Below, in pieces: positions 15,701 through 38,101 of a DNA stretch of 64,000 nucleotides (the stretch's first letter is position 1; each line of letters starts with the position of its first letter). Location of the stretch: contig CAVWLW010000068.1 in assembly GCA_963755715.1 (NCBI GenBank), positions 1 to 64,000 on the forward strand, given 5' to 3'. This DNA is from an uncultured delta proteobacterium (GTDB lineage: Bacteria; Desulfobacterota; Binatia; UBA9968). The translations under genes were made by a program, and so were the position numbers. Under the pieces are notes generated by a model. That model was not told the DNA's origin. It did no database searches and was given only the letters and a program-made list of their open reading frames with translations.

Positions 15701-16681
15701 ATGCGGCAATCCGCGTATGTCCTCGCGTTCGCACTGTTGGTTGGCATCCCTTTCGGCGTCCACGCCGCGGAAAAAGAAACCCAGGTAGTGGCCTACGTCT
15801 CGGGGCAGGCGGAGCGCTGGCAAAGATTGAATCAAGCGTTTCAAAGCAAACATCCGTCCATCGAAGTAAAGAGCATTCGCGGCAACTATGAGCGCACACG
15901 CAATCGCGTCGCGACCGAAGCCCTCGCCGGTTCTCATCTCGTCGATGTCATTCACATGGATCCATTCAATGGTTGGTTGCTGGTGCAGCGCGGCTTGTTT
16001 CAGCCTTATCTTTCGAAGGAAGCGGCGGCCTTCCCCGATCGTTTTCGCGATCCAGCGAATCTGCTGGTTTGCTGCCTGCAAGGGATTCCCAATATTATCT
16101 CGTACAACACCAACATGGTGTCGAAGGAAGCGGCGCCGAAAAATTACGACGACTTGCTCAATCCTCGGTGGAAAGATCAGTTGGGGATGGACGAGGACGA
16201 ATCCGAATGGTTTGCGGCTCTGATCGCGATCTGGGGTAAGGATAAGGCAACCAATTTCCTTCGAGGTTTGAATAAGCAAGCGCCGAGCTTACGGCGCGGC
16301 CATACCTTGCTGGCTCAGCTTAACGGAGCCGGTGAATTTGCCGTCGCGGTCAACGTTTTCGGTTACGAAGTATTGATTATGAAAGGCCAGGGAGCTCCGA
16401 TCGAACCGGTCTTGGCCTTTCCGGTGGTGGTCCGCCCTTCGTACCTGGCCATAGCTAAGCATGCGCCCCACCCCAATGCCGCCAAGCTCTACCTCGACTT
16501 TGCGATCTCCGCCGAAGGACAGCAATTGTGGGCCAACTTCGGCGCGCCCGTGCTGCGCTCCGGGATCAAACTTAGATTTCCCGAGCTGCTCAACAATCCG
16601 AATGTTCGTCCGGTCACGCTGGAAATGGCGAAGGACTACCCCCAGGTCAGCAAGCTCTTCTATTCGATCATCGGCAAATAA
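15701..16681 (+). CDS. ABC-type extracellular solute-binding protein (Fe3+/thiamine-like)
   Basis: Signal peptide, YDDLLNPRWK, APHPNAAKLYLDF. Confidence 0.88.
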   Translation: MRQSAYVLAFALLVGIPFGVHAAEKETQVVAYVSGQAERWQRLNQAFQSKHPSIEVKSIRGNYERTRNRVATEALAGSHLVDVIHMDPFNGWLLVQRGLFQPYLSKEAAAFPDRFRDPANLLVCCLQGIPNIISYNTNMVSKEAAPKNYDDLLNPRWKDQLGMDEDESEWFAALIAIWGKDKATNFLRGLNKQAPSLRRGHTLLAQLNGAGEFAVAVNVFGYEVLIMKGQGAPIEPVLAFPVVVRPSYLAIAKHAPHPNAAKLYLDFAISAEGQQLWANFGAPVLRSGIKLRFPELLNNPNVRPVTLEMAKDYPQVSKLFYSIIGK

Positions 16682-16724
16682 TGGATCGCAATTCTTGCCC
16701 GGTGCGGCGGAAAGATTCGGCTCA

Positions 16725-18882
16725 ATGAAACGAGAAACCGCGCACTGGAAAGCCGACCTCGATGCTCTATTCAAGCCGGCCTCGATTGCCGTCGTGGGCG
16801 CTTCGGATAGCGGCCGCGGCGCCAGAGTGATCGACAATCTTAGGCTCGTTGGCTATCCGGGAAAAATCTATCCGATCAATCCGAAGCATGCGTCGGTCCA
16901 TGGCCTGCGCTGTTACGCCGATGTCTTAGCGATCGATGACGCGATCGATTGTGTGACGATTCAGGTCCCGGCGACTGCGGTGCCCGGCGTCGTCAGCCAG
17001 TGCGCCGAAAAGAAAGTTAAAGCAGTCGTGATCAATAGCGCCGGTTTCGCGGAAACCCGCACGAGCGAAGGCCGTAGCTTGCAGAGCCAACTGACCCAGA
17101 CCGCCGAGCAGGCGAACATCGCCGTGTGCGGACCCAATTGTCAGGGCTTATTTTCGATCTCCAACCGTACCCCGCTTTATTTCGTCGATCTGAAATCGAT
17201 CGTGAAAGATCCGACGGCGGGTTCAGCGGCGGTTATTTCTCAAAGCGGCTCCATGCTAACCACACTGTTTCGCGCCGGGACCACTTATGGCCTGACTTTC
17301 AGTCATGTCATTTCGAGCGGCAACGAGGCCGTTTTGGATGTGTCCAATTATCTGGAGTATTTGCTGGATGAGCCGCAAACCAAGGTCGTGGGTCTCGTCC
17401 TGGAAGGAATTCGTGACGCGGATAACATCCGCAGGGTGGCGGCAAAGGCGCTCCGGTGCGGAAAGGTTATTGTGGTTCTCAAGATCGGCCGGTCCGAAAA
17501 GGGCAAGGAGAGTGTTCTCGCCCATACCAGCGCGCTCGCAGGATCCGATGACGTGCAGGATGCCTTCTTTAAACAATATGGTTGGATCCGCGTCGGCGAT
17601 CTGGATCAACTTCTGACGACCCTGGCGGCTTTTCTCTGCGGGCGTTTGCCGAAAGGGCGACGACTCGCGGTGGTCGGATTTTCCGGCGGCACGACCAGCC
17701 TGTCCGCCGATCTCTGCGAAGAGATGAAATTGGCGCTGCCCTCTTTGCCGGAACAGACTGCGGCTGCGCTTAGGGCGGAATTGCGCGGCTTTCTGTCGGC
17801 AAAAAACCCGCTCGATTTAGGCGGACCAAACCCCCGTTGGGTGGAAAGCGTGCAACGCTGCATCGGTCTTCTTGGCGAAAGCGGCCTGTTCGACATGGCC
17901 GTGCTGGTTTCGGCTCGAGGCGAAGAAAGCTATGTGCCGGTCTTGGCGGCGGCGGCAAAAGCCGCCTACGAGAAAGACCTCGCGTTTGCGCACGTGCTAT
18001 CGGTTTCCGGGCCTGTGGCAGAGGGCCTAAAAAATAAAGCGCGCGAAATAAACGTCCCATTGCTGCAGGACATCCGCAGGGGTTTTCAAAGTATTCGCCA
18101 CCTGGTCGAGTACGGCGAACTAAAGAACCGCTCCCGGTCAAGAGAAGCAGTGACCGAAAGAAGAAGCACGCCGCTCAAGGTCGTGGACAGGTTTAGAGGA
18201 AAAACGGTTTTGGGAGAAAGGGAGGCTAAAGAGCTGCTTTCGAGTTATGGCATTCCGGTAACCAAAGAAAGATTAGCCGTCGATCTACAAGATGCGCTAC
18301 GCACAGCGGCCGAGATCGGTTACCCGGTTGCGGTAAAGATCGATTCGCCGGATATCCTGCACAAGACGGAAGTGGGCGGAGATTTATCTGGGCGCGCGCG
18401 ACTCCCATGAACTCGCGGCGGCGTACAAACAAGTCACCGAAAGCGTTGCTTTGAAAGCTCCCGACGCAAAGGTCAACGGCATTTTGATTCAGGAGATGGT
18501 TAACGACGGCATCGAGCTGATCGTTGGCATGCATCGAGACCGGCAATTCGGGCCGGTGATTTTGGTCGGCCTTGGCGGTGTCTTGGCCGAGCTCTTGAAC
18601 GATGTGTCGCTGCGACTTTGTCCTGTGGATTCTGCCGATGTCGAAGACATGCTGTCGGAGCTCAAGGGCGCGCGCTTGCTCCGAGACTTTCGCGGCGGCG
18701 TGGCGCGAGACTTGAAAGCAGTAGGCGATGCGCTCGTAAGGTTGTCGGAGTTGGCGGGCGATTTCCTCGATGAAATTGAATCGATCGATATCAATCCCCT
18801 TGCCGTCTTCGCTGAAGGTCGGGGAGTCAAAGCAGTCGATGCTCTGGTTGTCCTGCGCCAGTCGACGGGAGAAGCGCGCTAG
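16725..18882 (+). CDS. ADP-forming acyl-CoA synthetase (acetate-CoA ligase family), frameshift near 18380-18410
   Basis: SIAVVGAS, GPNCQG, SQSGS, SSGNEA, HTSALAG, HKTEVGG and ATP-grasp C-terminus with DINPL. Confidence 0.9.
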
Positions 18883-18969
18883 CAATGTCCGGTTGGGCCG
18901 TGACACGGCCCAGTTAAATCTCGGTCATGCTTAATAACGGCGATTGAAGAAATTTTGTCGGGAGGTTCG

Positions 18970-20121
18970 ATGGATTTTGCATTACCCGAAGAGTTGCAGA
19001 TGGTTAAAGAAACCGTCAGGCGGTTTGTCGACAAGGAACTTATTCCAATCGAAATGCATAGCCAGGAAGACAACAAATTGAAGCCCGAGATTCGCGAAAG
19101 GCTGGAAAAAATAACCAAGCAGATGGGGCTTTGGTTGATCGATGTCCCCGAGGAGTATGGCGGCGCGGAGCTGGGGCTGCTCTCGCGCGTTGTTATCTGG
19201 GAAGAAATGGGCAGGACGATAGCTCTGCCGTCGCGGGAACGCGGCTTGTTCGGTCCCGAGATCAAGCCAATTCTGTATAACCTCAACGAGGAGCAAAAGC
19301 AGCGCTATTTTTATCCGGTCTTGCGCGGCGAGAAAACTTGCGGACTGGCGCAAACCGAGCCCGATGCGGGTTCGGATCCAGGGTCGATGAAGACCCGCGC
19401 GGTCAGGCAAGGAGACCACTACGTTATTAACGGCGTTAAGCGCTTTATCACTCATGCCGATGCGGATTTTCTCCAGGTCTTGGCGGTGACCGACCCAAGC
19501 AAAGGCGCCCACGGCGGGATTTCCTGCTTTCTGGTCGATCAGGGCACACCCGGATTTCAAATTACCGGCAGGTTCGAAACCATGATGGGCGAACGGCCTT
19601 ATCAAATCGTCTTTGACGATTGTAAAGTTCCGGTGGCGAACTTGGTGGGGAAAGAGGGCGAAGGATTTAAGCTGGGGCAAAAACATCTCGGCGTGGGGCG
19701 GTTGAGACATGGCGCAAGGGGTATTGGTGTGGCGGAACGCTGCCTCGAGATGGGTGTCAGTTATGCAAAACAAAGAGTGACCTTTGGCAAACCGTTGGCC
19801 GAGCGGCAAGCGATTCAATGGAAGCTGGCAGACTCTTTCGTCGAGCTTCATGCCTCTCGATTGATGGTGTATCAGGCGGCTTGGAAGGCTGACCAAGGCG
19901 AGGATATTCGAAATGAAGCTTACATGGTCAAACTGTTCGTCGACGAGATGTCGTTTCGCGTCGTCGATCGGGTGTTGCAGATCCACGGCGGCATCGGCCT
20001 GACTCTGGATCTCCCTCTGGCAAAATGGTTCGTCGATCAGCGCAGCCGATTGATTACCGAAGGCGCTTCCGAAGTCATGCGCATGGTCATAGCCCGCCAC
20101 GTTCTAAAAAAATACGGTTGA
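18970..20121 (+). CDS. Acyl-CoA dehydrogenase
   Basis: TEPDAGSD, NGVKRFIT, QIHGGIG, EGASEV. Confidence 0.95.
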   Translation: MDFALPEELQMVKETVRRFVDKELIPIEMHSQEDNKLKPEIRERLEKITKQMGLWLIDVPEEYGGAELGLLSRVVIWEEMGRTIALPSRERGLFGPEIKPILYNLNEEQKQRYFYPVLRGEKTCGLAQTEPDAGSDPGSMKTRAVRQGDHYVINGVKRFITHADADFLQVLAVTDPSKGAHGGISCFLVDQGTPGFQITGRFETMMGERPYQIVFDDCKVPVANLVGKEGEGFKLGQKHLGVGRLRHGARGIGVAERCLEMGVSYAKQRVTFGKPLAERQAIQWKLADSFVELHASRLMVYQAAWKADQGEDIRNEAYMVKLFVDEMSFRVVDRVLQIHGGIGLTLDLPLAKWFVDQRSRLITEGASEVMRMVIARHVLKKYG

Positions 20122-20148
20122 GCAGGGCGGCAAGCTATTTCCAACCCG

Positions 20149-20257
20149 ATCCCTGCGCCAATTTTTTACCCTGTCTTTTTTATAAGCCGGGAGCGCTGGT
20201 TAAAACTCAAAACATGGCGCCGAAGAAAATTTCCGTACCCTGAGCACCGCGCCGCGG
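20149..20257 (+). repeat. Copy 1 of the FAD-oxidoreductase promoter plus first ~9-14 codons
   Basis: gtctttttataagc..gcgctggttaaaactcaaaacATGGCGCCGAAGAAAATTTCCGT matches about 26020-26110. Confidence 0.85.
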
Positions 20258-20335
20258 AGAACTTGCGCGGTTTAGGTGACAGAGATAAAAATGGCGGAGA
20301 ATCACCGAGTCAGCTCGAAACCGGAGGCGAGGTCC

Positions 20336-21400
20336 ATGACGATTCCCGAGACCATGAACGCGGTGGTACTCCATGGCGCCGACGATATGCAAGTGGAGCG
20401 GCGGCCGGTGCCACAACCCGGGCCCGGCGAGGTCGTCCTGAAGGTGGAGGTTGCTTCCATCTGCGGCACCGACGTCAAGGTTCTACACCGCACGCTCCAG
20501 GGACAGCCCGCCGGGGAATTTATCATGGGCCATGAATATGCCGGCACCGTCGCGGCGCTGGGACCGGGCGTCGATGAGTTCCAGATCGGCGACCGCGTCG
20601 CCGTCGAGGTACACAAGGGGTGCGAGCGCTGCGAGAACTGCATCAAAGGTTGGTACACCTCGTGCCTGAATTACGGCAATCTCGAAAAAGGGCATCGCGC
20701 GAAAGGTCTTACCTGCGACGGCGGCTTCGCCGAATACACCGTCAATCACATCAACACGCTCTACCGCCTGCCCGATAACCTCACATTCGAGCAGGCCTGC
20801 ATGGTGACCACCGCCGCCTCACCGCTCTGGGCCATCGATCTCATGGGCGGCTACGTCGCCGGCGAAACGGTGCTCGTCCTCGGGCCCGGACCCATCGGCC
20901 TCATCGCGGTCCAGCTCTGCAAGGCCCTCGGCGCGGAGCGCGTCATCTTGACCGGCACTCGCGATTCGCGCCTGGCGATCGGCAAGCGCTTGGGCGCCGA
21001 CTTTACGATCAACGTGCGCCAAGAAAACCTCGCCGATCGCGTCCGCGAGATCACGTCCGGGAAAGGCGCAGATTCCGTGCTCGAGTGCGCCGGCGGCGCG
21101 ACCTCGATGCAGGACGCGCTCGAGAACGTCAAGCGCGGCGGTCGCATCGGTGTGGTGGCGTGGTACACGGGGCCCGTGCAGATGGACATGAATCTCGCGG
21201 TGCGCAGCAATGTGCGGATCTACGCGGCGCGGGGCGAGGGCGGCATGAACTCCGGCCGCTCGCTGGCGCTCATGAGCGCGGGGAAGATTCTGGCCGATCC
21301 CATCATCACCCATCACTTCAAGCTCGATCAGATCCACGAGGCGTTTCGGACCTATGTCGAGCGGATCGATAACGCACTGAAGGTCGCCATCCACATTTAA
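20336..21400 (+). CDS. Zn-dependent alcohol dehydrogenase (MDR; threonine/sorbitol dehydrogenase-like)
   Basis: ICGTD, GHE, CERCENC..C, GPGPIG. Confidence 0.93.
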   Translation: MTIPETMNAVVLHGADDMQVERRPVPQPGPGEVVLKVEVASICGTDVKVLHRTLQGQPAGEFIMGHEYAGTVAALGPGVDEFQIGDRVAVEVHKGCERCENCIKGWYTSCLNYGNLEKGHRAKGLTCDGGFAEYTVNHINTLYRLPDNLTFEQACMVTTAASPLWAIDLMGGYVAGETVLVLGPGPIGLIAVQLCKALGAERVILTGTRDSRLAIGKRLGADFTINVRQENLADRVREITSGKGADSVLECAGGATSMQDALENVKRGGRIGVVAWYTGPVQMDMNLAVRSNVRIYAARGEGGMNSGRSLALMSAGKILADPIITHHFKLDQIHEAFRTYVERIDNALKVAIHI

Positions 21401-21415
21401 GCCGGGAGACACAAT

Positions 21416-22434
21416 ATGCGAACGCGTTGGGTAGCCGTGGCGTTGGTCATCCTTGCCGTTATGGCGGTGGCGGATACCGCCCGGGCGCAGGCTCCGCGGC
21501 GGACGCTGACGATTGGCATGCCGGTCACGCCGCCGAATCTGCCGCACCTCGGCGTCTACGTCGCAAAGGAGCTCGGCTACTTCGAAGAAGAGGGAATCAA
21601 CCTTGACTTGGCCTCATTTGAATCCGGCCTGCAGTCGCTGCGCGGTGGCGTGGCAGGCAGCGTGGATCTCCTGGGAGCCAGCGCCGAGCCGGTAATCAGT
21701 GCCATCAGCCGGGGCGCGAAAATCCGCAGCGTCTTCAGCTATGCTCACAAGCTCACGGTGGTCATGGTGGCTCAGAAGAGCATCCAGAAGTCCGCTGAGC
21801 TGCGCGGCAAAAATCTCGGCATCCAGGAGGTTGGCGCCTTCCGCGAAGTGATGACGCGGGCGGTCCTGCAAACTGCCGGCCTCACCGCGCAGGATGTGAA
21901 TTACATCCCGGTTTCAAGCGCCGGCTATATTACCGCTCTCCTCGGCAACAAGATCGACACGGCGATCCTGCACATCGACCAAGCGTACATGGCGCGGACC
22001 AAGGAGGCTTCCCTCCACGTCCTGGTTCCCCTTTGGGAGATTATGCCGAGCTACTGGTATGGAACGTTTAGCACCACGGAGGATTTCCTGCGCAAGGAGC
22101 CGGATCTCTTGGCCCGCGCGGTCGGCGCCATCATCAAGGCCCACCGTTTCATGTACCGCAATAAGGACCGCACGCTCGAGCTGGCGAGCAAGCACACGGG
22201 CTATCCGAAGGAAGTTCTGAGCCCGGCCTATGATGCGCTGGCGGCCGCGAAGGTCTGGCCGGTCAATGATGGAATGCCGGCGGAGATGGTGAACACGACC
22301 ATCAACAAGATGGTGGAAATCGGCATGCTGAAGGAAACCGAAAAACCGAAGGCCGAGCAGGTGGTGGATCGGGGGCCGGCGAACGCCGCTGTGGCCAAGC
22401 TGGGACGGTGGACAGACGATCCTGCTGGAAATAG
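21416..22434 (+). CDS. NMT1/SsuA-type solute-binding protein; true stop probably TAG at 22432-22434 after a 1-bp indel
   Basis: Signal peptide, VAKELGYFEEEG, LRGKNLG; the ORF-track tail runs into duplicated DNA. Confidence 0.85.
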
Positions 22435-22469
22435 TCCCGCATCCACAAACAAGCCTCCCGCAAACATGC

Positions 22470-22580
22470 CGCCACGCGCTACGAGCACGAATACGCCAAT
22501 CACCAACTTACCGTTTTGTCGTCGGAAGCGAACAAGTTGTTTCAATTCACCAACCTGTCGATGATCAGCTTTCGCTAACA
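22470..22580 (+). repeat. Diverged copy of the last ~37 codons of the isochorismatase-fold gene at 28594-29214
   Basis: cgctacga.ca.gaatacgcca.tcaccaa..gcgaacaagttgtttcaattcaccaa.ctgtcgatgatcagctttcgc, also at about 29100-29205. Confidence 0.9.
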
Positions 22581-22597
22581 ACGGAACTTCGAAGTGA

Positions 22598-23004
22598 TTA
22601 TTTTGTTAACCAACGGATTTTGATGAGCGATTCGACGGATTCAAATTCCGGATCGTTGGTTAGAACCACTGCGTCGAGCCGCTGGGCGGTGGCGACGCAG
22701 AAGGCATCGGCGTAGGAGAGCGCGTGTTCACTCTTTATCTCGGCTGCGGCCCGGACCGCAGTTGGTCGATCGGATAAAGTTCGATTGGAAGTTGTTCGAG
22801 CAGGTGGAGCGCGTCTGTTGTCTTGCCAGCGCCGACACGTCGTTTGACGATATAGAAAAACTCGCCCCAATTGATCCAATTTAGAACTGCGCGCGTCTGT
22901 GCCTTATCTTGATCGTAGAGAGCCTTTTGAACCACCCGCCAGCCGGGCTCCCGGTGGTAAAGACTCAGGAGAGCAAAGCTATCGAGGACGAGCTTTTCGC
23001 TCAC
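22598..23004 (-). CDS. vapC: VapC PIN-domain toxin, frameshift near 22760
   Basis: VLDSFA..NWGEF..LSYADAF..LTNDPEF. Confidence 0.88.
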
Positions 23005-23230
23005 GTCGAGCCTCGTTGCGATGCTCCCGGCGGAGATCTTGAGTCAAGGAGAACTTGCCCTTTAAGAATCCCGTGGCGGCTTCGATCGGATCGGCAGGGA
23101 CCGGTGTGAGAATGAGTCGTCCGTCATCCTCGGCCATGTGAACTTTGCCACCTGGCTTGAGGCCTAGCTTCCGTCTTAGATTCTTGGGTACCAAAATCTG
23201 TCCCTTTGGCGTAAGTTGGGTTACTGACAT
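22979..23230 (-). CDS. AbrB/MazE/SpoVT-family antitoxin
   Basis: TPKGQILVPKNLRRKLGLKPG; overlaps the vapC start. Confidence 0.9.
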   Translation of the reverse strand: MSVTQLTPKGQILVPKNLRRKLGLKPGGKVHMAEDDGRLILTPVPADPIEAATGFLKGKFSLTQDLRREHRNEARRERKARPR

Positions 23231-23376
23231 ATAAAATGTCTCCCTTTTCTAAAAAAGTGTAACATCGGCTTGCAAGGTGCGCAAACACGATAAACTTTAG
23301 TTTTGTCGCTGCCCAGATCCTCGTCTCGGTTCACACATTCGACGGATTGCCTATACATTCACGCGGCGCGCTCCTA

Positions 23377-23690
23377 TCCCAGCCAATTCTCTTATCCCGT
23401 CTTTTCTGATAAGCCCGCGCTCGTTAAACTTAAACCATGGCGCCTGAGAAAATTTCCGTGCGCTGCTGCATCGCCGCCGGCGGTCCGGCCGGCATTATGT
23501 TGCGGTATCTGTATTTACTGGCGCGCGGCGGTGTCAAAGTCTTGGTGCTGGAAAAGCACGGCGATTTCCCGCGCGATTTTCGCGGCGATACCATTCCATC
23601 CTTCGACTCTAGGAAGTGATGCACGAGCTCGGCTTGCTCGACGAGTTGCTCAAACTGGCGCATCAGAAGGTCTACGAGCTTGCAAGGTCG
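23377..23690 (+). pseudogene. Copy 2: promoter plus ~250 bp degenerate 5' end of the FAD-oxidoreductase gene
   Basis: MAPEKISVRCCIAAGGPAG..VLEKHGDFPRDFRGDTI..MHELGLLDELLKLAHQKVYEL with indels. Confidence 0.92.
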
Positions 23691-23916
23691 TTAGTTAGAG
23701 CTTTAAAGCTTTTAGGGGTCAGATCTGGGGTTGACTAATTGACGACCGTTTCGGATCCGCAACCGCTGATGGCCAACGACGTTTCGATGAAAATCCGATT
23801 TCGTCGATAGAACCGCCGCTGCTTTTTGCTCCGAGCATTCCCTTGACACCTTCGCTACGCCCGCCCTATGATCCGCGGGTGTTTTCCGTCTAAACCCAGG
23901 CAGTCCGGAGGGTGCG

Positions 23917-24945
23917 ATGAAACGCTTCGCGTGCGCGCTGTTGTTTCTGCTGGCGTCGGTAACGAACCTGCAAGCTCAGGCGCCCTTCTATCAAGGAAAA
24001 ACCATCCGGATCATCGTCGGCAATCTTGCCGGCGACGCCTACGATCTTTGGGCGAGAATCTTCGCCCAGCACATGGGCAAGTACATACCGGGAAATCCCA
24101 CCTTCATCGTGCAGAACATGACCGGAGCGGGAGGAGTCGTCGCGGCCAACTACGTTTATACCGTGGCGAAGCCGGACGGTCTGACCCTCGGCACATTCGG
24201 GCCGTCGATGTACTTCGACCAACTGGCCAGGCGCCCGGAAGTCCAGTTCGACTGGGCGAAATTCACCTGGATCGGCAACCCGGAGCAAACCGAATTTATC
24301 CTGATCATGAGGACGGACAATCCGTACCAATCGATCGAGGACGTGCGCAAGGCCGCGCAGCCGCCCAAGTGCGGCGCCACGGGCACGAGCACTTCCGGTT
24401 ATTACATGCCGAAATTTTTGGACGACGGGCTGGGGATTAAATTCAACATCGTGACCGGCTATCCCGGCGGCGGCGAGATCGACCTCGGCATCGAGCGCGG
24501 CGAGCTGCACTGCCGCAATTTGACGATCAGCACCTACTTCGCCCGCGAGCCGTTTCTGACCTGGCACAAGAAAGGGTTTGTCCGGCCGATCCTGCAAACG
24601 GGGAAAAAAAGAGATCCTCTAGTCGCCGACGTTCCGTCCATCTATGAATTGATGGACCAATACAAAACGCCGGAGGCGACCCGGCGGGTGGCCACGGTGC
24701 TGCTCGCCCCCGCGGTCTTCGGCCGGCCGATGGTGGCGACGCCGGGCGTGCCGCCCGATCGAGTGAAAATCTTGCGCGACGCCTACCAACGGTCGCTCAA
24801 AGATCCCGCGCTGCTGGAAGAGTTGAAGAAGCGGCGCTGGTCGGTGGATGCGATCAGCGGCGAGGAGTTGGCGAAGCTGGCGAAAGAAGTGGTCTCGCAG
24901 CCGCCGGATGTCGTCGATCGGATGATGAAACTGTTGGGCAATTAA
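23917..24945 (+). CDS. Bug/TctC-like substrate-binding protein
   Basis: APFYQGKTIRIIVG, IPGNPTFIVQNM.GAGG, KPDGLT, TGYPGG. Confidence 0.9.
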   Translation: MKRFACALLFLLASVTNLQAQAPFYQGKTIRIIVGNLAGDAYDLWARIFAQHMGKYIPGNPTFIVQNMTGAGGVVAANYVYTVAKPDGLTLGTFGPSMYFDQLARRPEVQFDWAKFTWIGNPEQTEFILIMRTDNPYQSIEDVRKAAQPPKCGATGTSTSGYYMPKFLDDGLGIKFNIVTGYPGGGEIDLGIERGELHCRNLTISTYFAREPFLTWHKKGFVRPILQTGKKRDPLVADVPSIYELMDQYKTPEATRRVATVLLAPAVFGRPMVATPGVPPDRVKILRDAYQRSLKDPALLEELKKRRWSVDAISGEELAKLAKEVVSQPPDVVDRMMKLLGN

Positions 24946-24954
24946 CGCAGAGGG

Positions 24955-25003
24955 GTTCAAATCGTTCAAAACGTTCAACCGCTTCGCTCCGTTCAAGACG
25001 TTT
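24955..25003 (+). repeat. GTTCAA ~9-nt-period intergenic repeat
   Basis: gttcaaatc gttcaaaac gttcaaccgcttcgctcc gttcaagac gttt. Confidence 0.8.
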
Positions 25004-25197
25004 GGGACTTTCAGGATTTCAACCCATGCAGCAATTGGGTTTCACTTTATCTTATCTATCCGTAGCGCGTTCGCGCCAGTAATTAGGTCTACGCTTTCCG
25101 TGGGCGACAGCGAGGGGTGGCAATTGTGGGGTTGGGACTCTTTGATTCTTAATTTATCTCTACGGCAGCCGGTAAAACTGGGCTCGATTTATCTTCC

Positions 25198-25547
25198 TCA
25201 TCCTAATAACGATTCGGCTGGTATGGATAACTGCTTGTGCAAAGCGCGCATCATTTCCACACTAAGATTTCTCTTCTTATTCAGCACTTCCGAGGCCGGT
25301 TTCGCCCGCCGAGGATTTTCGCGAGATCGGACGCTTTGAGCCCGAGTCGATCCATTCGGAATTTGATTGCCTCGACGGGATCCGGGGGCGCGATAGGGTA
25401 TCGCCTCTGCTCGTATGCCTCCACCAATGTAACCAAAACGTCGAGCCGGTCTCCCGCTGCCGTACCCGGTTTCGCACCCCAGAGTTTGTCGATTTCCTTG
25501 AGAGCTTTCTGTCGATCGCGTTCGGTTTTGATTGGCTTGATTGTCAC
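25198..25547 (-). CDS. higA: HigA-type HTH antitoxin, frameshift near 25293
   Basis: IKPIKTE..DRLDVLVTLVEAYE..PDPVEAIKFRM then SEVLNKKRNLSVEMMRALH. Confidence 0.88.
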
Positions 25548-25548
25548 G

Positions 25549-25842
25549 TCAAACCTCCTCTGCATTGACTCTGTCGTAGGCCGCGTGTGTCCCGATAAAC
25601 CTGATATACACGATTTGAAAGTCGTACTTGATAGCCACGATGAGGCGGTAACTATTGCCCATGATATTGAATACGATCCGATTGTTTCGAATAAAGCTAG
25701 CCGTCCGGTAAGCGTTCTTAATATCCTGCGGGGATCGCCAATTGGCCCGTCTAGCTTCTGTATACCACGCTCTGAGTGCGCCCTCTGCGTCAGGATGCCT
25801 TTCCCAAAAAGCTTTGAGCGTCTTTACCGCGATTACTCGCAT
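25549..25842 (-). CDS. higB: HigB (RelE-superfamily) toxin
   Basis: MRVIA..FWERHPDA..RIVFNIMGNSYRLIV..RFIGTHAAYD; toxin upstream of antitoxin. Confidence 0.92.
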   Translation of the reverse strand: MRVIAVKTLKAFWERHPDAEGALRAWYTEARRANWRSPQDIKNAYRTASFIRNNRIVFNIMGNSYRLIVAIKYDFQIVYIRFIGTHAAYDRVNAEEV

Positions 25843-25857
25843 TGGATACTTTACTAC

Positions 25858-25874
25858 GTTCCCATATTGGGAAC
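25858..25874. promoter_or_regulatory. Probable HigA operator palindrome
   Basis: GTTCCCA-TAT-TGGGAAC about 15 bp upstream of higB. Confidence 0.6.
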
Positions 25875-26069
25875 AAGAAACATCCGTTGTAAGGTCGCAA
25901 ACATTGAAGTCGAGGCTGAATGTTGGCTTATTCTTATACGGCATCTTCAGGCGATCGGCAGGGCAACGGGGTACCCTAGGTTAATTGGACGCTACGGCGG
26001 GGCGAAGCAATCCTTGGGCGATTCTCTTACTCCGTCTTTTTGATAAGCAGCGCTCGTTAAACTCAAACC

Positions 26070-27296
26070 ATGGCACCTGACAAAATTTCCGTGCGCTGCT
26101 GCATCGCGGGCGGCGGGCCGGCCGGCATGATGCTGGGGTATCTGCTGGCGCGCGCCGGCGTCGAAGTCTTGGTGCTGGAAAAGCACGGCGATTTCCTGCG
26201 CGATTTTCGCGGCGATACGATTCATCCCTCGACTCTCGAAGTGATGCACGAGCTGGGATTGCTCGACGAGTTTCTCAAACTGCCGCATCAGAAGGTTTAC
26301 GAGCTCAACGCGCAAGTCGGCGAGATGCGGCTCACCATCGCGGACTTCCGCCACCTGCCGACCCGCTGCGGCTTTGTCGCCTTCATGCCGCAGTGGGATT
26401 TTCTCAACTTCCTCGCCGAAAAAGCGGCGCGCTATCCAAATTTCAATTTAACGATGCAAGCCGAGGTGACCGGCCTGATCGAAGAATCGGGCCGCGTGGT
26501 CGGCGTGCGCGCGAAGACTGCCAACGGAGAAATTGAAGTGCGCGCCGATCTCGTCGTCGGCGCCGACGGCCGGAGCTCGATCGTGCGCGAAAAGGCCGGT
26601 TTGAAAGTGAAGGAATTCGGCGCGCCGATGGACGTGCTCTGGTTTCGGCTCCGTCGAACTGCGACAGATCCCGTGGCGACCATGGGCAGGTTCGATAGCG
26701 GCAGGATTTTTATCGCGCTCAATCGCGGCGACTATTGGCAGTGCGGCTACGTCATCGCCAAGGGACAATTCGAAGAGATGCGCCGGCAGCCATTCGAAAC
26801 TTTTCGCGCGGCGATCGTGAAGCTCGCGCCCTACGCGAGAGACAGCGTGCAGGAGCTGCGCGGCTGGGACGATGTCAAGCTTTTAACGGTCCGCGTGGAC
26901 CGATTGTTAGAATGGTTTCGGCCGGGTCTCTTGTGCATCGGCGACTCGGCGCACGCCATGTCTCCGGTCGGCGGCGTCGGCATCAATCTCGCGATTCAGG
27001 ACGCCGTGGCGGCGGCCAACGTTCTCTTCGAACCGCTGCGCGAAGGACAGCTCGCGATCGATCACCTGCGCCGGATCCAGAAGCGCCGCGAGTTGCCCAC
27101 GCGCGTGACGCAAGGGTTGCAGGTCGCCGTGCAGCGCCGGATCATTGCCCGCGTGTTGGTCGAGACCGGACCGCTCAAGCCGCCGCTCGCGGTGCGCTTG
27201 CTGGCAAAAATTCCATTCCTCCGGCGCATCCCGGCCCGCATCGTCGGTCTCGGCATCCGCCCGGAACATGTCGACCCTGCGCTAGCGCAAGAATGA
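26070..27296 (+). CDS. FAD-dependent oxidoreductase/monooxygenase (UbiH-like), intact copy 3
   Basis: GGGPAG, GADG, GDSAHAMSPVGGVGINLAIQD. Confidence 0.93.
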   Translation: MAPDKISVRCCIAGGGPAGMMLGYLLARAGVEVLVLEKHGDFLRDFRGDTIHPSTLEVMHELGLLDEFLKLPHQKVYELNAQVGEMRLTIADFRHLPTRCGFVAFMPQWDFLNFLAEKAARYPNFNLTMQAEVTGLIEESGRVVGVRAKTANGEIEVRADLVVGADGRSSIVREKAGLKVKEFGAPMDVLWFRLRRTATDPVATMGRFDSGRIFIALNRGDYWQCGYVIAKGQFEEMRRQPFETFRAAIVKLAPYARDSVQELRGWDDVKLLTVRVDRLLEWFRPGLLCIGDSAHAMSPVGGVGINLAIQDAVAAANVLFEPLREGQLAIDHLRRIQKRRELPTRVTQGLQVAVQRRIIARVLVETGPLKPPLAVRLLAKIPFLRRIPARIVGLGIRPEHVDPALAQE

Positions 27297-27464
27297 GGAT
27301 CGCAATCTTTACATCGTGGTACCGCCGACGCGGCTATGCGGAAACAACCGAAAGTACCTGTGCATGTGCAACTTCGACTCTAGCCACGACGCCGCGAGTT
27401 TGCTATGAGCATGGCCAATCATCGAGTGAGTTGAATCCCACTGCGCAGCCGGAGGAATATTGCC

Positions 27465-28500
27465 GTGCCGCTGATCACGCGTTTGCCTAGAACATTAAGA
27501 AGTCTCGCCCTGTCGTTGCCTGTGCTCATGCACAGCATCCTGCCCGCCCAAGGACAGGACAAAGCGCTCGTCGAAGCCGCCCGCAAGGAAGGAAAGGTCA
27601 CTATTTTCGGATCTCTTCAAGAGGAAGTGATGAAGGCGATTCTGGAGAGCTTCGACAGGAAGTATCCGGGCGTCAAGAGCGTGTATTGGCGTGCGTCGAC
27701 CACGGCGGTCATGGATCGGGCGATCAACGAATTCCGCACGGGAAAAGTGTCCTGGGACATCTTCTTCACCGGGGTCGACGCCATGGAAATTATGCGAGCC
27801 GAAGGAATGTTTCTCAAATATCAAACACCGGCGAGCAAGAACTTCGACAAGGAGTATCATCACGCGTTCTACAGCCCAAACTATCGGAGCTCGATCATCG
27901 GTTTCGTCTACAACACCCGCTACATCAAGCCGGCGGAGGCGCCGAAATCCTATTGGGATTATGCCGATCCGAAGTGGGACGGCAAAACCACCATGTCCGA
28001 TCCGACGGCGCACACGTCGATGGCTAAGTGGCTCTCCAGCCTGCACCTCGTGCTAGGCGACAAAAGTAAGGAAGACGAATATGCCCAGCGTTTGGCCGCG
28101 AGCAGCCCCGCTGTTGCACCGCTCGCTGACGCCGGCTGTGGAAAGCATTGCCAATGGTGAAAGGCCTTTGGGGATCGCGTACATCAAGTATGTTTGCGAT
28201 ATGGGCAAAGTCGGCGCGCCGTTGGACTACGTGCGCTTGCCCGCCTACCTGGGCGAAGGCAATTACATCGCCATCGGTTCCAAGTCAGCGAACGTCAACG
28301 CCGCCAAACTATGGATCGACCATTGGTATAGCAAGGAGAGCATGACGGCGCTGGCGAACGACTGCGAGTTCGTCAATCTGCGCGGCGTTCATCCGCCGCT
28401 GAAAGACGCCGGTAAAATCAAGTTCGTCGAAGAAATTCAGCGCAGCGAAACCGACTATAAGCAGCTCGGCGAAAAATACGGCAAATTTTTTAAAAAATAG
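27465..28500 (+). CDS. ABC-type extracellular solute-binding protein, frameshift near 28110
   Basis: ALVEAARKEGKV, YWDYADPKWDGK, NAAKLWID. Confidence 0.85.
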
Positions 28501-28593
28501 TATGCCACGCCCAGCCCGACGGGGCTCGCTCATTGGGGTTCGTCGTGCCGACGCTGGAATAAGCTGCGCACTTAACGGAAGGAGAATATCGTC

Positions 28594-29214
28594 ATGAAAA
28601 TCCGATCCGCTCTTCTTTTTCTTTGGCTCATGCTGTCGGCCGCGGGCGCTTGGGCGCAAGAAGGTCCGAACCGGCCCGAGCCAAAGCCAATTACGCTCGA
28701 CAGCAAGAGCACCGCGATCTTGGTGCTCGACCTCAACGCCCGCTGCGATGATCCCAAGCAAGTCTGCTCGAAAATCACCGCGCCACTGGGAGATTTCCTG
28801 GACAAGGCGAGGGCCGCCGCCGTGCCGATCATCTACAGCGTGTCGGCGACGGCTAAAGGAAAGCCGATCGGCGAGCTGGCGGCGCCGCTGCGGCGAAAAG
28901 AGAGTGAGACCGTCATTTATCCCGACGCCTTCGATAAGTTTTACGGCGGCGAGCTTCAGGCTTTTCTCAAGGACAAGGGCGCCAAAACTTTGATCATCAC
29001 CGGCTCGGCAACCAATAATGCCGTTCTTTATACCGCGACGACCGCGGCGCGCATGCATCGCTACAGCATCGTGATCCCCATGGACGGCGTGAACGCCAGC
29101 TCGCGCTACGAACAGGAATACGCCATTCACCAATTTACCGTCTTGCCGTCGGAGGCGAACAAGTTGTTTCAATTCACCAATCTGTCGATGATCAGCTTTC
29201 GCCAGCAACCCTAA
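28594..29214 (+). CDS. Secreted isochorismatase/cysteine-hydrolase-fold protein lacking the catalytic Cys
   Basis: Signal peptide AWA-Q; TAILVLD; LIITGSATNNAVLYTA. Confidence 0.85.
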   Translation: MKIRSALLFLWLMLSAAGAWAQEGPNRPEPKPITLDSKSTAILVLDLNARCDDPKQVCSKITAPLGDFLDKARAAAVPIIYSVSATAKGKPIGELAAPLRRKESETVIYPDAFDKFYGGELQAFLKDKGAKTLIITGSATNNAVLYTATTAARMHRYSIVIPMDGVNASSRYEQEYAIHQFTVLPSEANKLFQFTNLSMISFRQQP

Positions 29215-29236
29215 GAGAGAGCGGAGCATTGAAAAA

Positions 29237-29267
29237 GTTCCCGTCGTTCCAACGCCTCCATCGCTGC
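29237..29267 (+). repeat. Degenerate GTTC repeat copy
   Basis: gttcccgtc gttccaac gcctccatcgctgc. Confidence 0.45.
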
Positions 29268-29589
29268 TTGGGTTAATCACGAATTTGCCAGCTCGGTAGC
29301 AATGTAGACCGCGCCAACCTGAAATCGATCCTATGTTCTTGATAATAAGTTCTGCTGGCGCGTGAGCGGCTAACACACCTAGTTGTGGCTTAAAGCCTCA
29401 CACGCGATCACCCGTTCGATTCGTGGAATTAAATCGCAGAACAGGAGTGGTAAAGACTTGAACCGCCGTTTCGGCGAGGTAGCATTTTATCTAGATGAAG
29501 GCCCGAGCCGGACACTCGAAGAAAGCGCTCCATGTCGTACAATTTCTTGAATGCGAAACACGGCAAGTCACCCGAAAGGAGAACTAATC

Positions 29590-30174
29590 ATGGCGTGGAT
29601 CAGGACGTTCGAGGAGAACGAAGCACGAGGACTTTTGACTTGGGTTTATCGGGTAGCGCGCTGGACGCAGGGTCGAATTCCCAACATCGTTAAGCTCTCG
29701 AGTCTCAACCCGCGCGTTCTAGTTGCGCTGGGTCCCCTCTATCGCACGCTTATGGAGGGTCCGTCGCCGTTGAGCTGCGCGCAGCGCAAGATGGTCGCTA
29801 TCGTCGCCTCTAAAGTGAATAACTGTTTCTACTGAACCGAGGCTAACGGAGAGTTTCTCCGTGAGGAATTGGACGACGTCGAATTGACCGATGCGCTCAT
29901 GGATGATTACCGCAAAGCGCCGCTCGAGCCAGAGATGAAGCAGCTATTATCCTTTGCCGAAAAGGTGGCACGCGACGCCGGCGAGATGACTCCAGATGAT
30001 ATTGCGAAGCTCCGTTCGGCTGGTTTCTCTGACCGAGCGTTGTTAGATGCTGCCCACGTTGCCGGCTTCTTCAGCTATATGAATCGGGTCGTGCAGGCGC
30101 TCGGCGCCGATGGCAAGGCAAGCATCGGCGCGACGCACGCGCTGCAGCCGGCAAAAATCAGCCACTCGATTTAG
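29590..30174 (+). CDS. AhpD/CMD-like peroxidase-related protein with in-frame TGA (probable selenocysteine, CxxU)
   Basis: ..SKVNNCFY-TGA(29833)-TEANGEFLREELDDV.. continues in frame into ORF 29869-30174 (FAEKV..GFFSYMNRVVQALG). Confidence 0.8.
29843..29865 (+). promoter_or_regulatory. Candidate bacterial SECIS hairpin
   Basis: ACGGAGA-GTT-TCTCCGT 7-bp stem; G-initiated loop 17 nt after the UGA. Confidence 0.65.
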
Positions 30175-30447
30175 CGAGATTTGAGTTTTCACGCCAAGCA
30201 GTTCGCGCTGCTCTAGTCGCCCTTCTGAGCGTCAAGCCGTTCATCGCGGTCGCGGCTTGCAGCACGACATGGTGTTATGGATCTGGCCCGATCGGATTGT
30301 TCGCACTTGATTTCTTGCCACCGAGCCATAGTTGAACTCCCAGTATGTTGGTAAACTCTTTGTTGAGCACGCCATTGGTTATTTAATCGCGGCAGCTCGT
30401 TTTAGTTAGGTACCGCTAGTCGACGTGACCGTTGGCAAAGGGACCCA

Positions 30448-30756: not shown

Positions 30757-30796
30757 GTTCCAGTCGTTCCACATGTTCTTCGCTCGCGTTCCAATT
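30757..30796 (+). repeat. Degenerate GTTC repeat copy
   Basis: gttccagtc gttccacat gttcttcgctcgc gttccaatt. Confidence 0.55.
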
Positions 30797-30903
30797 GGCG
30801 CGCGAAAGCGGACTTCTTGTTTGTGCTTTCCGTTGAGTGCTAGAACGAACTTCGGACCCGATGCTTAGAGAGCGCATCTCTGCAGGGCGCGCCAAGCTCT
30901 ACA

Positions 30904-31909
30904 ATGTCATCGCAACATATTTTCTTTTTCTTCGCCAAATCAGCCGCGCTTCTTACTCTCGCAGCGTTCATGCTCGCTCATAATTGCGCGATGGTTTGGG
31001 GCGCGGAAACTCTCCAGTTTGGATTTTCGGGAGCGACCGCTACTCAATTGGCGGGTTCTCTGGCTGTCGAGCACAAGTTGTTCGACATTTACGGGGTGAA
31101 CGTCGAATTTACTCAATCGGCGGGAACGACCATGATACGCGCTCTCGATTCCGGCAGCTTGCAGGTCGCTATCGTGGGCGGCGGTCAGGCGTTGAGCGCC
31201 TACTTGAAGGGCGTCGACGTTCGCATCATCAGCGGGCTCGTGAACATTGTTCCTTTTCAACTTTGGGCGAAGCCGGAGATTTCTCAGCTGAAAGATCTCA
31301 AGGGAAAGCTGATCGCCAACACTCCACCGGGCACGTCGCTCAATTTAGCCAATCAGATTTTACTCATGCGCGCCGGGCTCGATCCGCTGAGAGAGGTAAA
31401 GCTGGTGGCGTTCGGCCGGTTGGGGCTCGTCTCACAGGCGCTGTTCACCGGCGTGGTCGACGCCGCGCTTTTGTCGCCGCCGGATACCATCGAAGCGCGA
31501 AGATCCGGACTGCGCATGTTGCTGGACCTGGCGACGGCGCGGATTCCTTGCCCGTTCACTTCGGTGGTCACCACCAAGGCAGTGCTGGAAAAATCTCCGG
31601 CGCCGCTGGATCGATTTCTACGAGGGATACTTCACGGGATCAAACTTGCGTTGACCAATCCGGATATGGCAAAAAAGACCATAGGCCGAAACATGCGGCT
31701 CACCAACCCCGAAGCGGTCGAAGAAGTTTATCAGCGAGCGATCTTAGCATACGAGCGTGTACCGATGGTTCCTAAAGAAGCGATCGAGACGGTGGTCAAG
31801 CTTTCAACGGTTCCATGCTAATCGAAACCCGTTCGGCGTGTTGGATATGACTATCCTCGATCGCATCGATAAGGAAGGATTTGTCAGATCGCTCTATTCG
31901 ATGAAATAG
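30904..31909 (+). CDS. NMT1/SsuA-type solute-binding protein; C-terminal frameshift near 31820
   Basis: AKPEISQLKDLKGK, AGLDP; tail VLDMTILDRIDKEGFVRSLY in the next frame. Confidence 0.85.
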
Positions 31910-31926
31910 GAAATTTTTTCAGGAGG

Positions 31927-32781
31927 TTGTCATGGCAAGATATCCGAGGAGTTGGAAAAAAGATCACCTACAGCGAGGACAATCCGATCAGCGCGGAGAT
32001 CGAAGCACTGCGCAAAAGCCGCGATGATATCAAGCGGCCGCCCAAAGACGACGAGGAGCGCGAACGTTTGGCGCGCTGGCTCGCGCACCGCGGCCGCGAC
32101 GAGCTCGAAGTCACGGTCGGCACGGCGTGTTACGCCATGGCGCACTTCGAAATGGATTCCGAATGGCGTTATTTTCTCGCCGAGCATGCCGGCACCGAAG
32201 CGGGCCACGGCTGGGGTTATATACGCCAGGCCAACGCCATCGACCCAAGCCGCGATCACTCCAAACCCGATCCTGAGTTTGAGCGCAAGTACGGCCTTAC
32301 CCCGCGCATCGAGCACCACCAGATCATGAAGCGCGATTTTTTGAGCTACATTTTTTCCGGCAACTTGTGGCCCTACGGCCACGTCACCGCGGCGAGCATC
32401 CAGAGCATTCAGATCACGACGCCGAAGCTGCTCGATTTCGAAGAACGCGTGGTGCACGCCGAAGAGCGCAGCCATCACGACGCGATTTTGCAAAAACTCC
32501 ACGACTACGTCTGGGAGCAGATCGAGATTTGGGGCGAAGCGCCGATTCGCCGGCGTATCGGCGAGATCGAGAAGCAGGCGCTCAACAGCCGTCCGCGCAC
32601 GGTCTTCGATCCGCCGCGACGGGAGTTCCTGCGCAAATACTTCAACGTCCCGGTGGAGAATGTGCGGAAATTCCCCGCCTGGAGAGAGTATCTTTATCTC
32701 AATGTCCTCGGCTTTCCGCCGGAGCCGGTTTACATCGAGAACTGGCCCGCGGAAATTCCCCAGCCCAAGGCGGGATTATAA
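31927..32781 (+). CDS. Ferritin-like (diiron-carboxylate) domain protein of unknown function
   Basis: Helical pattern with E (RDELE), ExxH (TEAGHG) and ExxH (EERSHH); AGGAGG RBS. Confidence 0.65.
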   Translation: MSWQDIRGVGKKITYSEDNPISAEIEALRKSRDDIKRPPKDDEERERLARWLAHRGRDELEVTVGTACYAMAHFEMDSEWRYFLAEHAGTEAGHGWGYIRQANAIDPSRDHSKPDPEFERKYGLTPRIEHHQIMKRDFLSYIFSGNLWPYGHVTAASIQSIQITTPKLLDFEERVVHAEERSHHDAILQKLHDYVWEQIEIWGEAPIRRRIGEIEKQALNSRPRTVFDPPRREFLRKYFNVPVENVRKFPAWREYLYLNVLGFPPEPVYIENWPAEIPQPKAGL

Positions 32782-32845
32782 GACGCGTTTGCGCCTTGAA
32801 GGGAGATTAGCTGCTGGCGACTGAGCGACGAGTGATATTCTGAGT

Positions 32846-33847: not shown

Positions 33848-33862
33848 AGTTCATTGACTCGA

Positions 33863-34939: not shown

Positions 34940-35000
34940 AGAACGATGAAGCTTAGGTCTTGTGACCGATTAAAGTTTTCACCCTCTTCCAGTGAAATTG

Positions 35001-35108: not shown

Positions 35109-35177
35109 GAGTTCTCTGAGAGTGGAAGAAATATAGATCCGAGCCGTCAATGCTTCTCACTAATATTTAAGGACGCG

Positions 35178-38062: not shown

Positions 38063-38101
38063 GACTATCTCCTTAGATATGCAACGCTGAACGAGTTCGA
38101 G

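Follow-up and report, generated by a model that had tools for sequence, protein, structure and literature searches.

We analyzed a stretch of 64,000 nucleotides (nt) of DNA, referred to here as the window, which comprises positions 1 to 64,000 of the 117-kb contig C68 from an uncultured delta proteobacterium (Binatia). The genome, G000, is a metagenome bin of 7.4 Mb, obtained by long-read assembly, with 76 contigs and 4.2% contamination. The locus of interest is an array built around a gene for a flavin adenine dinucleotide (FAD)-dependent oxidoreductase, the FAD gene. The start of this gene and ∼60 nt of DNA upstream of it were present three times in direct orientation, with two truncated copies (rem1 and rem2) to the left, the intact gene to the right and other genes in the two intervals between them. 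The three copies were as follows.

20149-20251, + strand: rem1, the FAD upstream region (from about -65) and the first ∼13 codons (blastn identity of 76 to 80% to the other two copies, E about 1e-12; alignment; translation).
23386-23690, + strand: rem2, a pseudogene consisting of the FAD upstream region and ∼80 codons (self-blastn, repeat search and alignment).
26070-27296, + strand: the intact FAD-dependent oxidoreductase gene, PRK06185 type (PF01494, E 8e-59; NF004834, 664 bits), spanning 26010-27296 with its native ∼60-nt upstream region.

An earlier note on this DNA had described the recurrence of the upstream region and gene start as diverged, truncated direct repeats, and this was borne out by self-blastn of the span from 17 to 32 kb and by a search for inverted and direct repeats between 18 and 30 kb. 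In the self-blastn comparison, 23386-23680 of rem2 matched 26021-26305 of the gene with 88.5% identity over 295 nt (E 2e-102), rem1 (20149-20251) matched 26010-26108 with 76.0% identity over 104 nt (E 7.6e-13), and the two truncated copies matched each other (20157-20242 and 23382-23465) with 79.5% identity over 88 nt (E 2.6e-12). The repeat search recovered these families too, a three-way alignment had the copies in register, and no further copy of the gene start was found in the 7.4-Mb assembly. The sequence of rem2 has gained 6 nt at one site and 1 nt at each of two others, its GxGxxG motif carries a G-to-A change, and its frame closes after codon 60, while rem1 was open for 9 codons and then reached a stop. 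The indels and the stop indicated that rem2 is dead; its codon changes (11 synonymous versus 9 non-synonymous) fell within the range for orthologues (e.g., 10 versus 7 and 19 versus 13) and do not alone prove relaxed constraint. A greater age of rem1 than of rem2 was considered on the basis of the divergence gradient and was dropped, as rem1 is mostly promoter sequence, which diverges fast between orthologues too, and as some differences between a stub and the intact copy may have existed from the outset.

The genes and gene remnants in the two intervals and on the flanks of the array were as follows.

18955-20121, + strand: acyl-CoA dehydrogenase (ACAD) gene, left flank of the array (Pfam Acyl-CoA_dh_N/M/1).
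20299-22462, + strand: interval 1, module of a zinc-dependent alcohol dehydrogenase (ZnADH) gene and an NMT1/SsuA-type solute-binding protein (SBP) gene (Pfam, NCBIfam).
22475-22582, + strand: interval 1, 108-nt 3' remnant of an isochorismatase-family gene (90.7% identity to 29102-29209, the end of the intact gene).
22598-23264, - strand: interval 1, vapBC-type cassette (PF04014, PF01850, TIGR01439).
23714-25002, + strand: interval 2, TctC (Bug) SBP module, starting ∼33 nt past rem2 (PF03401).
About 25040-25115, - strand: interval 2, putative 3' remnant of a RelE/ParE-type toxin gene (the reverse-strand translation ends ...LAVAHGKRRPNYW).
About 25197-25944, - strand: interval 2, higBA cassette (PF09907, E 5.6e-32; PADLOC).
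27465-28500, + strand: SBP_bac_1-type binding-protein gene, split in the assembly (Pfam).
28594-29214, + strand: intact isochorismatase-family gene, the source type of the remnant at 22475-22582 (PF00857, E 8.8e-16).

The gene content that the earlier note had listed for the intervals (Zn-ADH, SBP and abrB-vapC in the first; Bug SBP and higBA in the second) was confirmed by Pfam, NCBIfam and PADLOC. The isochorismatase remnant, the relE/parE remnant, a promoter-like site belonging to tctC itself and frameshifts in vapC and higA had been overlooked. In interval 1, the open reading frame (ORF) of ZnADH is listed from 20276 and the NMT1 gene starts at 21416. Comparison with genome G012 indicated that the NMT1 gene truly ends with the TAG at 22431-22433, an indel probably accounting for the longer frame seen in the window. 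The vapBC cassette consists of an AbrB/MazE antitoxin gene (22979-23230) and a PIN toxin gene (22598-23004) that is frameshift-split in the assembly. In interval 2, the TctC module contains the gene itself (23917-24945), a promoter-like site, TTGACA-18-TATGAT, at 23843-23872 (score, 11/12) and an array of GTTCAA units at 9-bp spacing (24955-24996); promoter sites were called by a consensus scan, and all promoters mentioned here are predicted, promoter-like sequences. The higBA cassette comprises HigB (about 25549-25842) and a partner (about 25199-25565) that is frameshift-split near 25281-25300. HigB matched PD-Lambda-2_A of PADLOC, while the match of the partner to PD-Lambda-2_B was confined to positions 1 to 87 of 402, and the cassette could be either a plain higBA pair or a cut-down PD-Lambda-2 anti-phage defense system. 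A comparison of the 94-amino-acid higA-like ORF with solved structures yielded no meaningful match. Both vapBC and higBA were classed as putative type II toxin-antitoxin pairs, since in each a small antitoxin gene neighbors a small toxin gene and their families match, and the remnant at 25040-25115 was assigned to the RelE/ParE family by motif reading and not by a profile match.

Each of these modules was detected elsewhere with other neighbors. The ZnADH-NMT1 module had 85% DNA identity to contig C153 of G012 over exactly 20299-22462, with different flanks there. Cassettes 76 to 78% identical to vapBC were present between unrelated flanks in G018 (C16), G015 (C12) and G012 (C22), and the TctC module was 93 to 95% identical in differing contexts in G045 (C87 and C57), G018 (C13) and G044 (C8). 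For higBA, matches of 70 to 71% over 25197-25878 were found in G018 (C46) and G020 (C45). All interval modules therefore recurred in other contexts (ZnADH-NMT1 in 1, vapBC in 3 genomes, TctC in at least 4 and higBA in 2), and both intervals are mosaics of modules with separate histories. The inserts measure 2.6 to 3.2 kb and carry ordinary metabolic genes. Their GC content was heterogeneous (0.48 to 0.56 in the toxin-antitoxin cassettes and 0.63 to 0.68 in ZnADH) and does not decide their origin.

The layout was examined with Logan short-read contigs from three soil studies (runs X1, X2 and X4), one run of which may be the source of the assembly. The junction from ACAD through rem1 to ZnADH was bridged by X1 record 2 (20100-20641) and X2 record 17 (19800-20254), the stretch from the isochorismatase scrap through vapBC to the edge of rem2 was bridged by X2 record 22 (22547-23395), and the path from TctC through higBA to the FAD gene was bridged by X4 record 32 (24947-26064) and X1 record 8 (25142-26104). 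One X2 contig joined a FAD-like end at 26305 to position 23714 through 9 other letters, which is a variant of the rem2-TctC junction. No single contig among the Logan records of the three studies spanned the whole array. Roughly 14 soil runs contained more than half of the locus.

The context of the FAD gene was then compared between relatives. Of 41 genomes searched, 12 encoded the protein, G000 included, and a search of 31 genomes of the genus with the first 306 bases of the gene gave matches in 14. There was a single match in 11 of these genomes and three in G000; G044 had two on the same contig, 1.84 kb apart, and G045 had two on different contigs. The ∼60 bases before the ATG were conserved in 6 of the 10 loci from relatives, back to 26010-26021 and none further, and the remaining 4 loci aligned only from 26065-26083. 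(One of the six, G005, is an unpublished genome, and no claim depends on it alone.) The outer edges of all three copies in G000, at about -50 to -70, coincide with the point at which homology between species ends, which is what an origin of the copies in different upstream contexts would predict. The upstream neighbors did differ, in line with the variable content that had been proposed as a check: a glutathione S-transferase (GST) gene in G004; a TctC paralogue and a luciferase-like gene in G003; GST, a vapBC-like pair, a luciferase-like gene and TctC in G020; a divergent MFS gene in G011 and G016; a low-complexity protein gene in G012 and G017; and unknown ORFs in G018 and G005.

Two relatives carried structures related to the array. 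In G044, a separate stub of the FAD gene (-61 to +156) is followed by 1.6 kb of DNA and then by the intact gene. This independent insert encodes a small PEP-CTERM protein and contains no recognizable toxin-antitoxin pair; NCBIfam and PADLOC searches of the small upstream ORFs in G044 and G018 gave no matches. The stub was identical to the G018 gene at 190 of 193 positions versus 187 of 194 for the intact copy in G044, a small difference and a weak hint that stub and intact copy may stem from different lineages. On contig C18 of G045, the order is ACAD (97% DNA identity to the window up to 20127), a 39-nt FAD scrap corresponding to 26294-26332, a relE scrap and the FAD gene, and this locus is a nearly empty site in which relics persist. 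The relE scrap, directly upstream of the FAD gene, is a longer homologue of the remnant at 25040-25115. In the window, the position of that remnant beneath higBA indicates that a toxin-antitoxin module has been supplanted there by another one. Contig C87 of G045 has TctC (95%) joined to the FAD gene 17 bases before the ATG, without higBA.

In the alignments, the downstream side of the FAD gene appeared as variable as the upstream side. On contig C67 of G042, an isochorismatase gene directly follows the FAD gene, and compared with this contig the window holds ∼12 kb of extra DNA (30770-42980; amidohydrolases, a PrpD-like gene and NMT1-type binding proteins) and two smaller extra blocks (27278-28545 and 29222-30278). 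The SBP_bac_1 gene also follows the FAD gene on G045 C18 and is absent between FAD and isochorismatase on G042 C67. The G045 bin holds two full FAD-SBP loci, with either ACAD (C18) or NMT1-TctC (C87) upstream; either the bin combines two strains or the second copy is real.

Similar scars were sought throughout G000. A total of 224 local direct repeat pairs were detected (≥80 nt, ≥75% identity, ≤12 kb apart), of which 57 were 80 to 700 nt long and ≥85% identical. From these, 17 loci were chosen by eye, not at random, and 141 ORFs were annotated; the loci lie on contigs C1, C4, C12, C32, C33, C35, C36, C43, C54, C56, C59, C69 and C76. Gene-end stubs were present in 15 of the 17 hand-picked loci, in the same orientation as a long gene a few kilobases away and with ordinary genes between. 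Thirteen of the 15 stubs were 3' ends located downstream (for example, of NrfA, ThyX, two amidohydrolases, a MetE-like gene, EamA and asparaginase), several of them ending within a few bases of the stop codon, and two were 5'-proximal pieces located upstream. A Pfam scan of the 141 ORFs at the 17 loci detected no integrase, transposase or toxin-antitoxin gene at E ≤ 1e-5. The clearest 5' case is on C4, where a methyltransferase gene, a stub of an aminoacyl-tRNA synthetase (aaRS) gene (-64 to +270), a GT87 glycosyltransferase gene and the intact aaRS gene follow one another. Relatives had either methyltransferase directly beside aaRS (G006 and G011) or GT87 beside aaRS (G015), and none of the matches from the 31 genomes searched had the order methyltransferase-GT87-aaRS. 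The C4 locus of G000 thus resembles two alternative contexts fused into one. Judged from these repeats, the scar-forming process appears to be general in G000.

Pfam scans of the ORFs in the window detected no integrase or transposase, as the earlier note had stated, and six-frame family searches extended this negative result to the whole contig: C68 held 0 of the 13 PF00589, 0 of the 9 PF01797, 0 of the 1 PF00665 and 0 of the 2 PF01609 matches, and PF00239 had no match anywhere in G000. The window contains no tRNA gene, and no Rfam match at gathering level was obtained within 19 to 30 kb. Of attC-like structures there was no sign at any module border, the search of 18 to 30 kb yielding 15 weak inverted pairs with arms at least 962 nt apart. 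A crossover core shared by the stub ends, which the earlier note had proposed as a check, was looked for in rem1, rem2 and the G044 stub, and none was found. The inner ends of FAD homology lay at about +40 in rem1 (∼26108), +236 in rem2 (26305-26315) and +156 in G044 (26226) and thus differed by up to 200 nt. Transposases are scarce in G000, and three Ku homologues are encoded, so end-joining should be available.

These results suggested that the array arose by sequential displacement through homology-anchored illegitimate recombination between alleles of the FAD gene located in different contexts, a reading to which we assign a probability of roughly 0.55. The FAD gene sits, in related soil bacteria, behind differing upstream neighbors. 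At least twice, DNA carrying the gene start and another upstream context would have been joined into the resident locus, with one crossover being homologous, within the shared gene, and the other join being illegitimate, inside or just past the resident copy. The route may have been a circularized fragment entering by a single crossover or homology-facilitated illegitimate recombination. Each event would leave the intact gene on the right, the imported neighbors in between and the old promoter and first codons displaced upstream as a dead stub. We infer the direction of transfer along with this route. Sequential displacement would explain the topology of truncated copies on the left and an intact one on the right, the varied inner ends, the mosaic modules and the absence of a recombinase. 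It would also account for an outer boundary located where the homology between alleles runs out, which is the promoter edge at this locus and the stop codon at the 3' scars. The recurrence of the interval modules in other contexts supports it, as do simpler states in relatives, namely, the near-empty site of G045 C18, TctC-FAD in G045 C87, GST-FAD in G004 and the arrangement in G020. Also in its favor are the stubs at other gene ends of G000, among them the C4 locus, the scarcity of transposases alongside three Ku homologues, the weak hint from the G044 stub and the published precedent described below. The proposal of the earlier note that DNA bringing a replacement gene start had accreted without an integrase is supported in outline, the anatomy fitting displacement of the old start.

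Several observations weigh against sequential displacement. No donor or intermediate has been caught, and a tree of the 5' ends, with bootstrap values of 19 to 69 on the relevant nodes, pointed to no donor, so that each copy may be of foreign or of within-genome origin. The sequence GACTCT is shared by rem2 and its own intact gene, whereas the other sequences aligned have GACCCT, and this could reflect a within-genome origin or gene conversion. Homology-facilitated illegitimate recombination in its textbook form replaces recipient DNA and does not duplicate the anchor, so that an extra assumption is needed, namely, that the intermediate was circular or that sister chromosomes exchanged DNA. 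The scars found throughout the genome are known from one long-read assembly, at hand-picked loci. Finally, the isochorismatase scrap and the FAD scrap of G045 C18 fit an older tandem duplication of FAD and isochorismatase at least equally well.

That last point leads to an alternative in which a FAD-isochorismatase unit, perhaps with a divergent toxin-antitoxin pair, underwent an old tandem duplication or triplication followed by deletions and overwriting, so that the stubs would be leftovers of deletion and nothing would have been imported. No spontaneous rearrangement is commoner in bacteria than tandem duplication. The isochorismatase remnant at 22475-22582 lies in interval 1, and FAD-isochorismatase is a native pair on G042 C67. 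The FAD scrap beside ACAD on G045 C18 (26294-26332) implies a first copy that was once longer and was shortened by a deletion at an AGG microhomology, and the adjacency of TctC and FAD is native on G045 C87 and is found at the level of paralogues in G003 and G020. However, neither blastn nor tblastx detected similarity between the two intervals or upstream of the copies beyond about -70, and several extra replacements, each ending exactly at the promoter edge, would be required. Stubs elsewhere in G000 end at stop codons, which is unlike deletion endpoints, and the ancestral order that a duplication would demand at C4 (methyltransferase-GT87-aaRS) is the one not seen among the matches. Overall, this origin by duplication seems unlikely.

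In the 7.4 Mb of G000, 12 PIN, 2 ParE and 1 HigB matches were detected, the last being the only PF09907 match. Two of these 15 matches and the relE scrap lie within 3.3 kb at the array, each next to a copy of the FAD start. By our own arithmetic, ∼0.01 such genes would be expected per 6 kb, which argues that the concentration is not due to chance. Among relatives, toxin-antitoxin genes near FAD were found only in G045 C18 (the scrap) and in G020 (a pair 2.5 kb upstream). The enrichment is thus real at the array and is not a general rule. The earlier description of every insert as capped by a toxin-antitoxin pair holds for both intervals here and fails for the G044 insert and the 17 other loci, which have none. 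The co-occurrence gives rise to a testable idea, that the pairs help repeat-flanked inserts to persist: they might kill cells in which the repeats have recombined and the insert has been lost, and inserts bearing a pair would then last longer.

Re-use of promoters was also considered. ZnADH starts ∼80 nt after the ATG of rem1 and has no promoter-like site of its own, and use of the displaced promoter is therefore possible at the rem1-ZnADH junction. In interval 2, the claim that the old promoter drives the new cargo did not hold up: TctC brings its own promoter-like site, and re-use is not needed there. RNA contigs of run X15 covered ZnADH-NMT1 and 23380-23530 and not rem1, contigs being unable to show where transcripts start. 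Two sequence features of the native upstream region were also seen. A TAAACT motif is conserved 6 to 8 nt before the FAD ATG, no Shine-Dalgarno-like sequence is visible in 26040-26072 or in relatives, and a leaderless FAD mRNA is possible. Within the conserved upstream region, 4 to 5 nt that both stubs and most relatives have kept are missing from the intact copy in G000.

A broader version of sequential displacement would make homology-anchored insertion-duplication at gene ends a main route of gene gain in these transposase-poor, Ku-rich soil bacteria, marked by a legible trail of stubs, with stub promoters being re-used at this locus and toxin-antitoxin pairs blocking loss of the inserts until the repeats have diverged. 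We consider this version distinctly unlikely.

A dedicated platform that operates without a recombinase, in which the 5' end of the FAD gene serves as a docking site, displaced promoters drive the cargo and toxin-antitoxin pairs lock the inserts, is the model of the earlier note and was judged to be very unlikely. Two successive events here, a third and independent one in G044 and a relic in G045 C18 would be consistent with such a platform. In all three inserts, the cargo runs in the direction of the stub, the toxins are concentrated as described above, and ZnADH lies near rem1 without a promoter-like site of its own. Against this, neither the G044 insert nor the 17 other loci contain a toxin-antitoxin pair, TctC is preceded by a promoter-like site that belongs to it, the ends of the stubs have no core in common, and 11 of the 14 genomes with a match have one only. 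Furthermore, similar scars occur mostly at the 3' ends of unrelated genes, indicating that nothing is specific to the FAD promoter.

As a dedicated system, the integron-like hotspot of the earlier note is not supported, there being no shared crossover core, no attC-like structures and comparable scars at 15 of the 17 other loci. Integrons and superintegrons are characterized by IntI, by attC sites at the borders of cassettes and by promoterless cassettes expressed from a common promoter, and some of the cassettes are toxin-antitoxin pairs. The array resembles them as a serial array at a fixed point, with additions next to a functional gene and toxin-antitoxin pairs inside. In contrast to integrons, it has no IntI, attI, attC or uniform borders; its repeats are pieces of a gene and not recombination sites, TctC has its own promoter-like site, and the toxin-antitoxin pairs face the opposite way.

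Decayed tandem genomic islets were also considered, in which a site-specific recombinase would have acted at an att site in the 5' end of the gene and the integrases would since have been lost. Direct repeats of a gene end on both sides of an insert classically mark integrative elements, and genomic islands often carry toxin-antitoxin pairs. Like tandem islands at att sites in gene ends, the array has direct gene-end repeats that bracket the inserts and a gene that is intact on one side, and G000 contains 13 tyrosine-recombinase matches elsewhere. Unlike such islands, it has no recombinase gene or fragment (no integrase match in six frames of the 117-kb contig) and no tRNA gene in the window. 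Its repeats of 100 to 300 nt have inner ends that differ by up to 200 nt and lack a core, and its small inserts of 2.6 to 3.2 kb consist of ordinary metabolic genes found as separate modules elsewhere. An origin from islets is therefore highly improbable.

An assembly artefact, in which strain variants of one locus were strung together in the long-read metagenome assembly, is hardly credible, as, despite a bin of 76 contigs with 4.2% contamination, many 1-nt indels relative to short-read contigs and many split genes, short-read contigs of three studies bridge three groups of junctions, related structures occur in other assemblies (G044 and G045), and the stubs, being 12 to 24% diverged, truncated and indel-bearing, are not alternative functional alleles.

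Sequential displacement at the FAD gene has parallels in known systems. For the effector-immunity arrays of the type VI secretion system (T6SS) of Vibrio cholerae, homology-facilitated illegitimate recombination has been proposed (Kirchberger et al. 2017, PMC5361080). In that paper, the same idea is cited for the displacement of Rhs 3' ends (Jackson et al. 2009), and the result is likened to integrons, with the remark that an integrase plays no part. As described there, the T6SS and Rhs arrays share with the present locus an integrase-free accretion at one gene in which a conserved part serves as the anchor and the other end joins illegitimately, and the old variable part is pushed aside and kept, so that repeated rounds build an array. 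They differ in that 3' ends and immunity genes are displaced downstream, and retention of immunity genes has an obvious benefit, whereas at the present locus it is the promoter and 5' end of a metabolic gene that lie displaced on the upstream side, and the cargo consists of binding-protein and dehydrogenase genes. Partial duplications can also be made by homologous exchange alone, as in transformation-triggered merodiploidy, which proceeds by alternative pairing and sister-chromatid exchange (Johnston et al. 2013, PMC3784515). Such merodiploidy likewise keeps one intact and one altered copy of a gene. It involves 100 to 900 kb with repeat borders derived from insertion sequences, in contrast to the units of 2.6 to 3.2 kb here, where the repeat is the gene start itself.

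Campbell-type insertion-duplication is another process in which a partial duplication arises by homologous recombination. A literature search on Campbell-type islands without an integrase gave nothing relevant; this search was narrow, and we do not claim that 5'-end displacement at metabolic genes is unpublished. The locus is a well-preserved case of known displacement scars and no new machine. It is unusual in affecting the 5' end of a metabolic gene, in recording two events and in being rich in toxin-antitoxin genes. Displacement scars are known for toxin loci (Rhs and T6SS), and the same logic would apply here at the promoter end of an ordinary metabolic gene. If sequential displacement is correct, the array is a natural record of gene gain without the enzyme of a mobile element, with two successive events and with empty and intermediate states in relatives. 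The many gene-end stubs in G000 also suggest a way of counting such events in uncultured bacteria.

Some further features of the window were recorded. Comparison of the assembly with short-read contigs detected many 1-nt indels, for example, at 20255, 23892 and 25141. Genes split into two frames were present across the window and included a CoA ligase/ATP-grasp gene (16461-18882), the SBP_bac_1 gene (27465-28500), genes for a peroxidase-related CMD protein (29551-30174) and a SAM hydroxide adenosyltransferase (59495-60356); these splits are probably consensus errors of long reads rather than gene decay. The FAD gene itself is split in the long-read bins of near relatives. For these reasons, the single frameshifts in vapC and in the HigB partner were treated as possible sequencing errors.

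The GTTCAA units at 9-bp spacing that follow TctC belong to a short repeat dispersed in intergenic DNA across G000. Pairs of units 2 to 5 nt apart occurred 174 times in the genome, versus a median of 2 (maximum, 22) for the other permutations of the letters of the hexamer. Copies of the array after TctC were also found after the FAD gene in G044 and 3 kb from TctC on G018 C13. Loose contig ends at 24955-25003 were considered as recombination breakpoints and rejected, since the dispersed GTTCAA repeat breaks short-read assemblies. Finally, dnaN and dnaA are located at 52740-55550, ∼26 kb from the array, which therefore lies near the likely replication origin.

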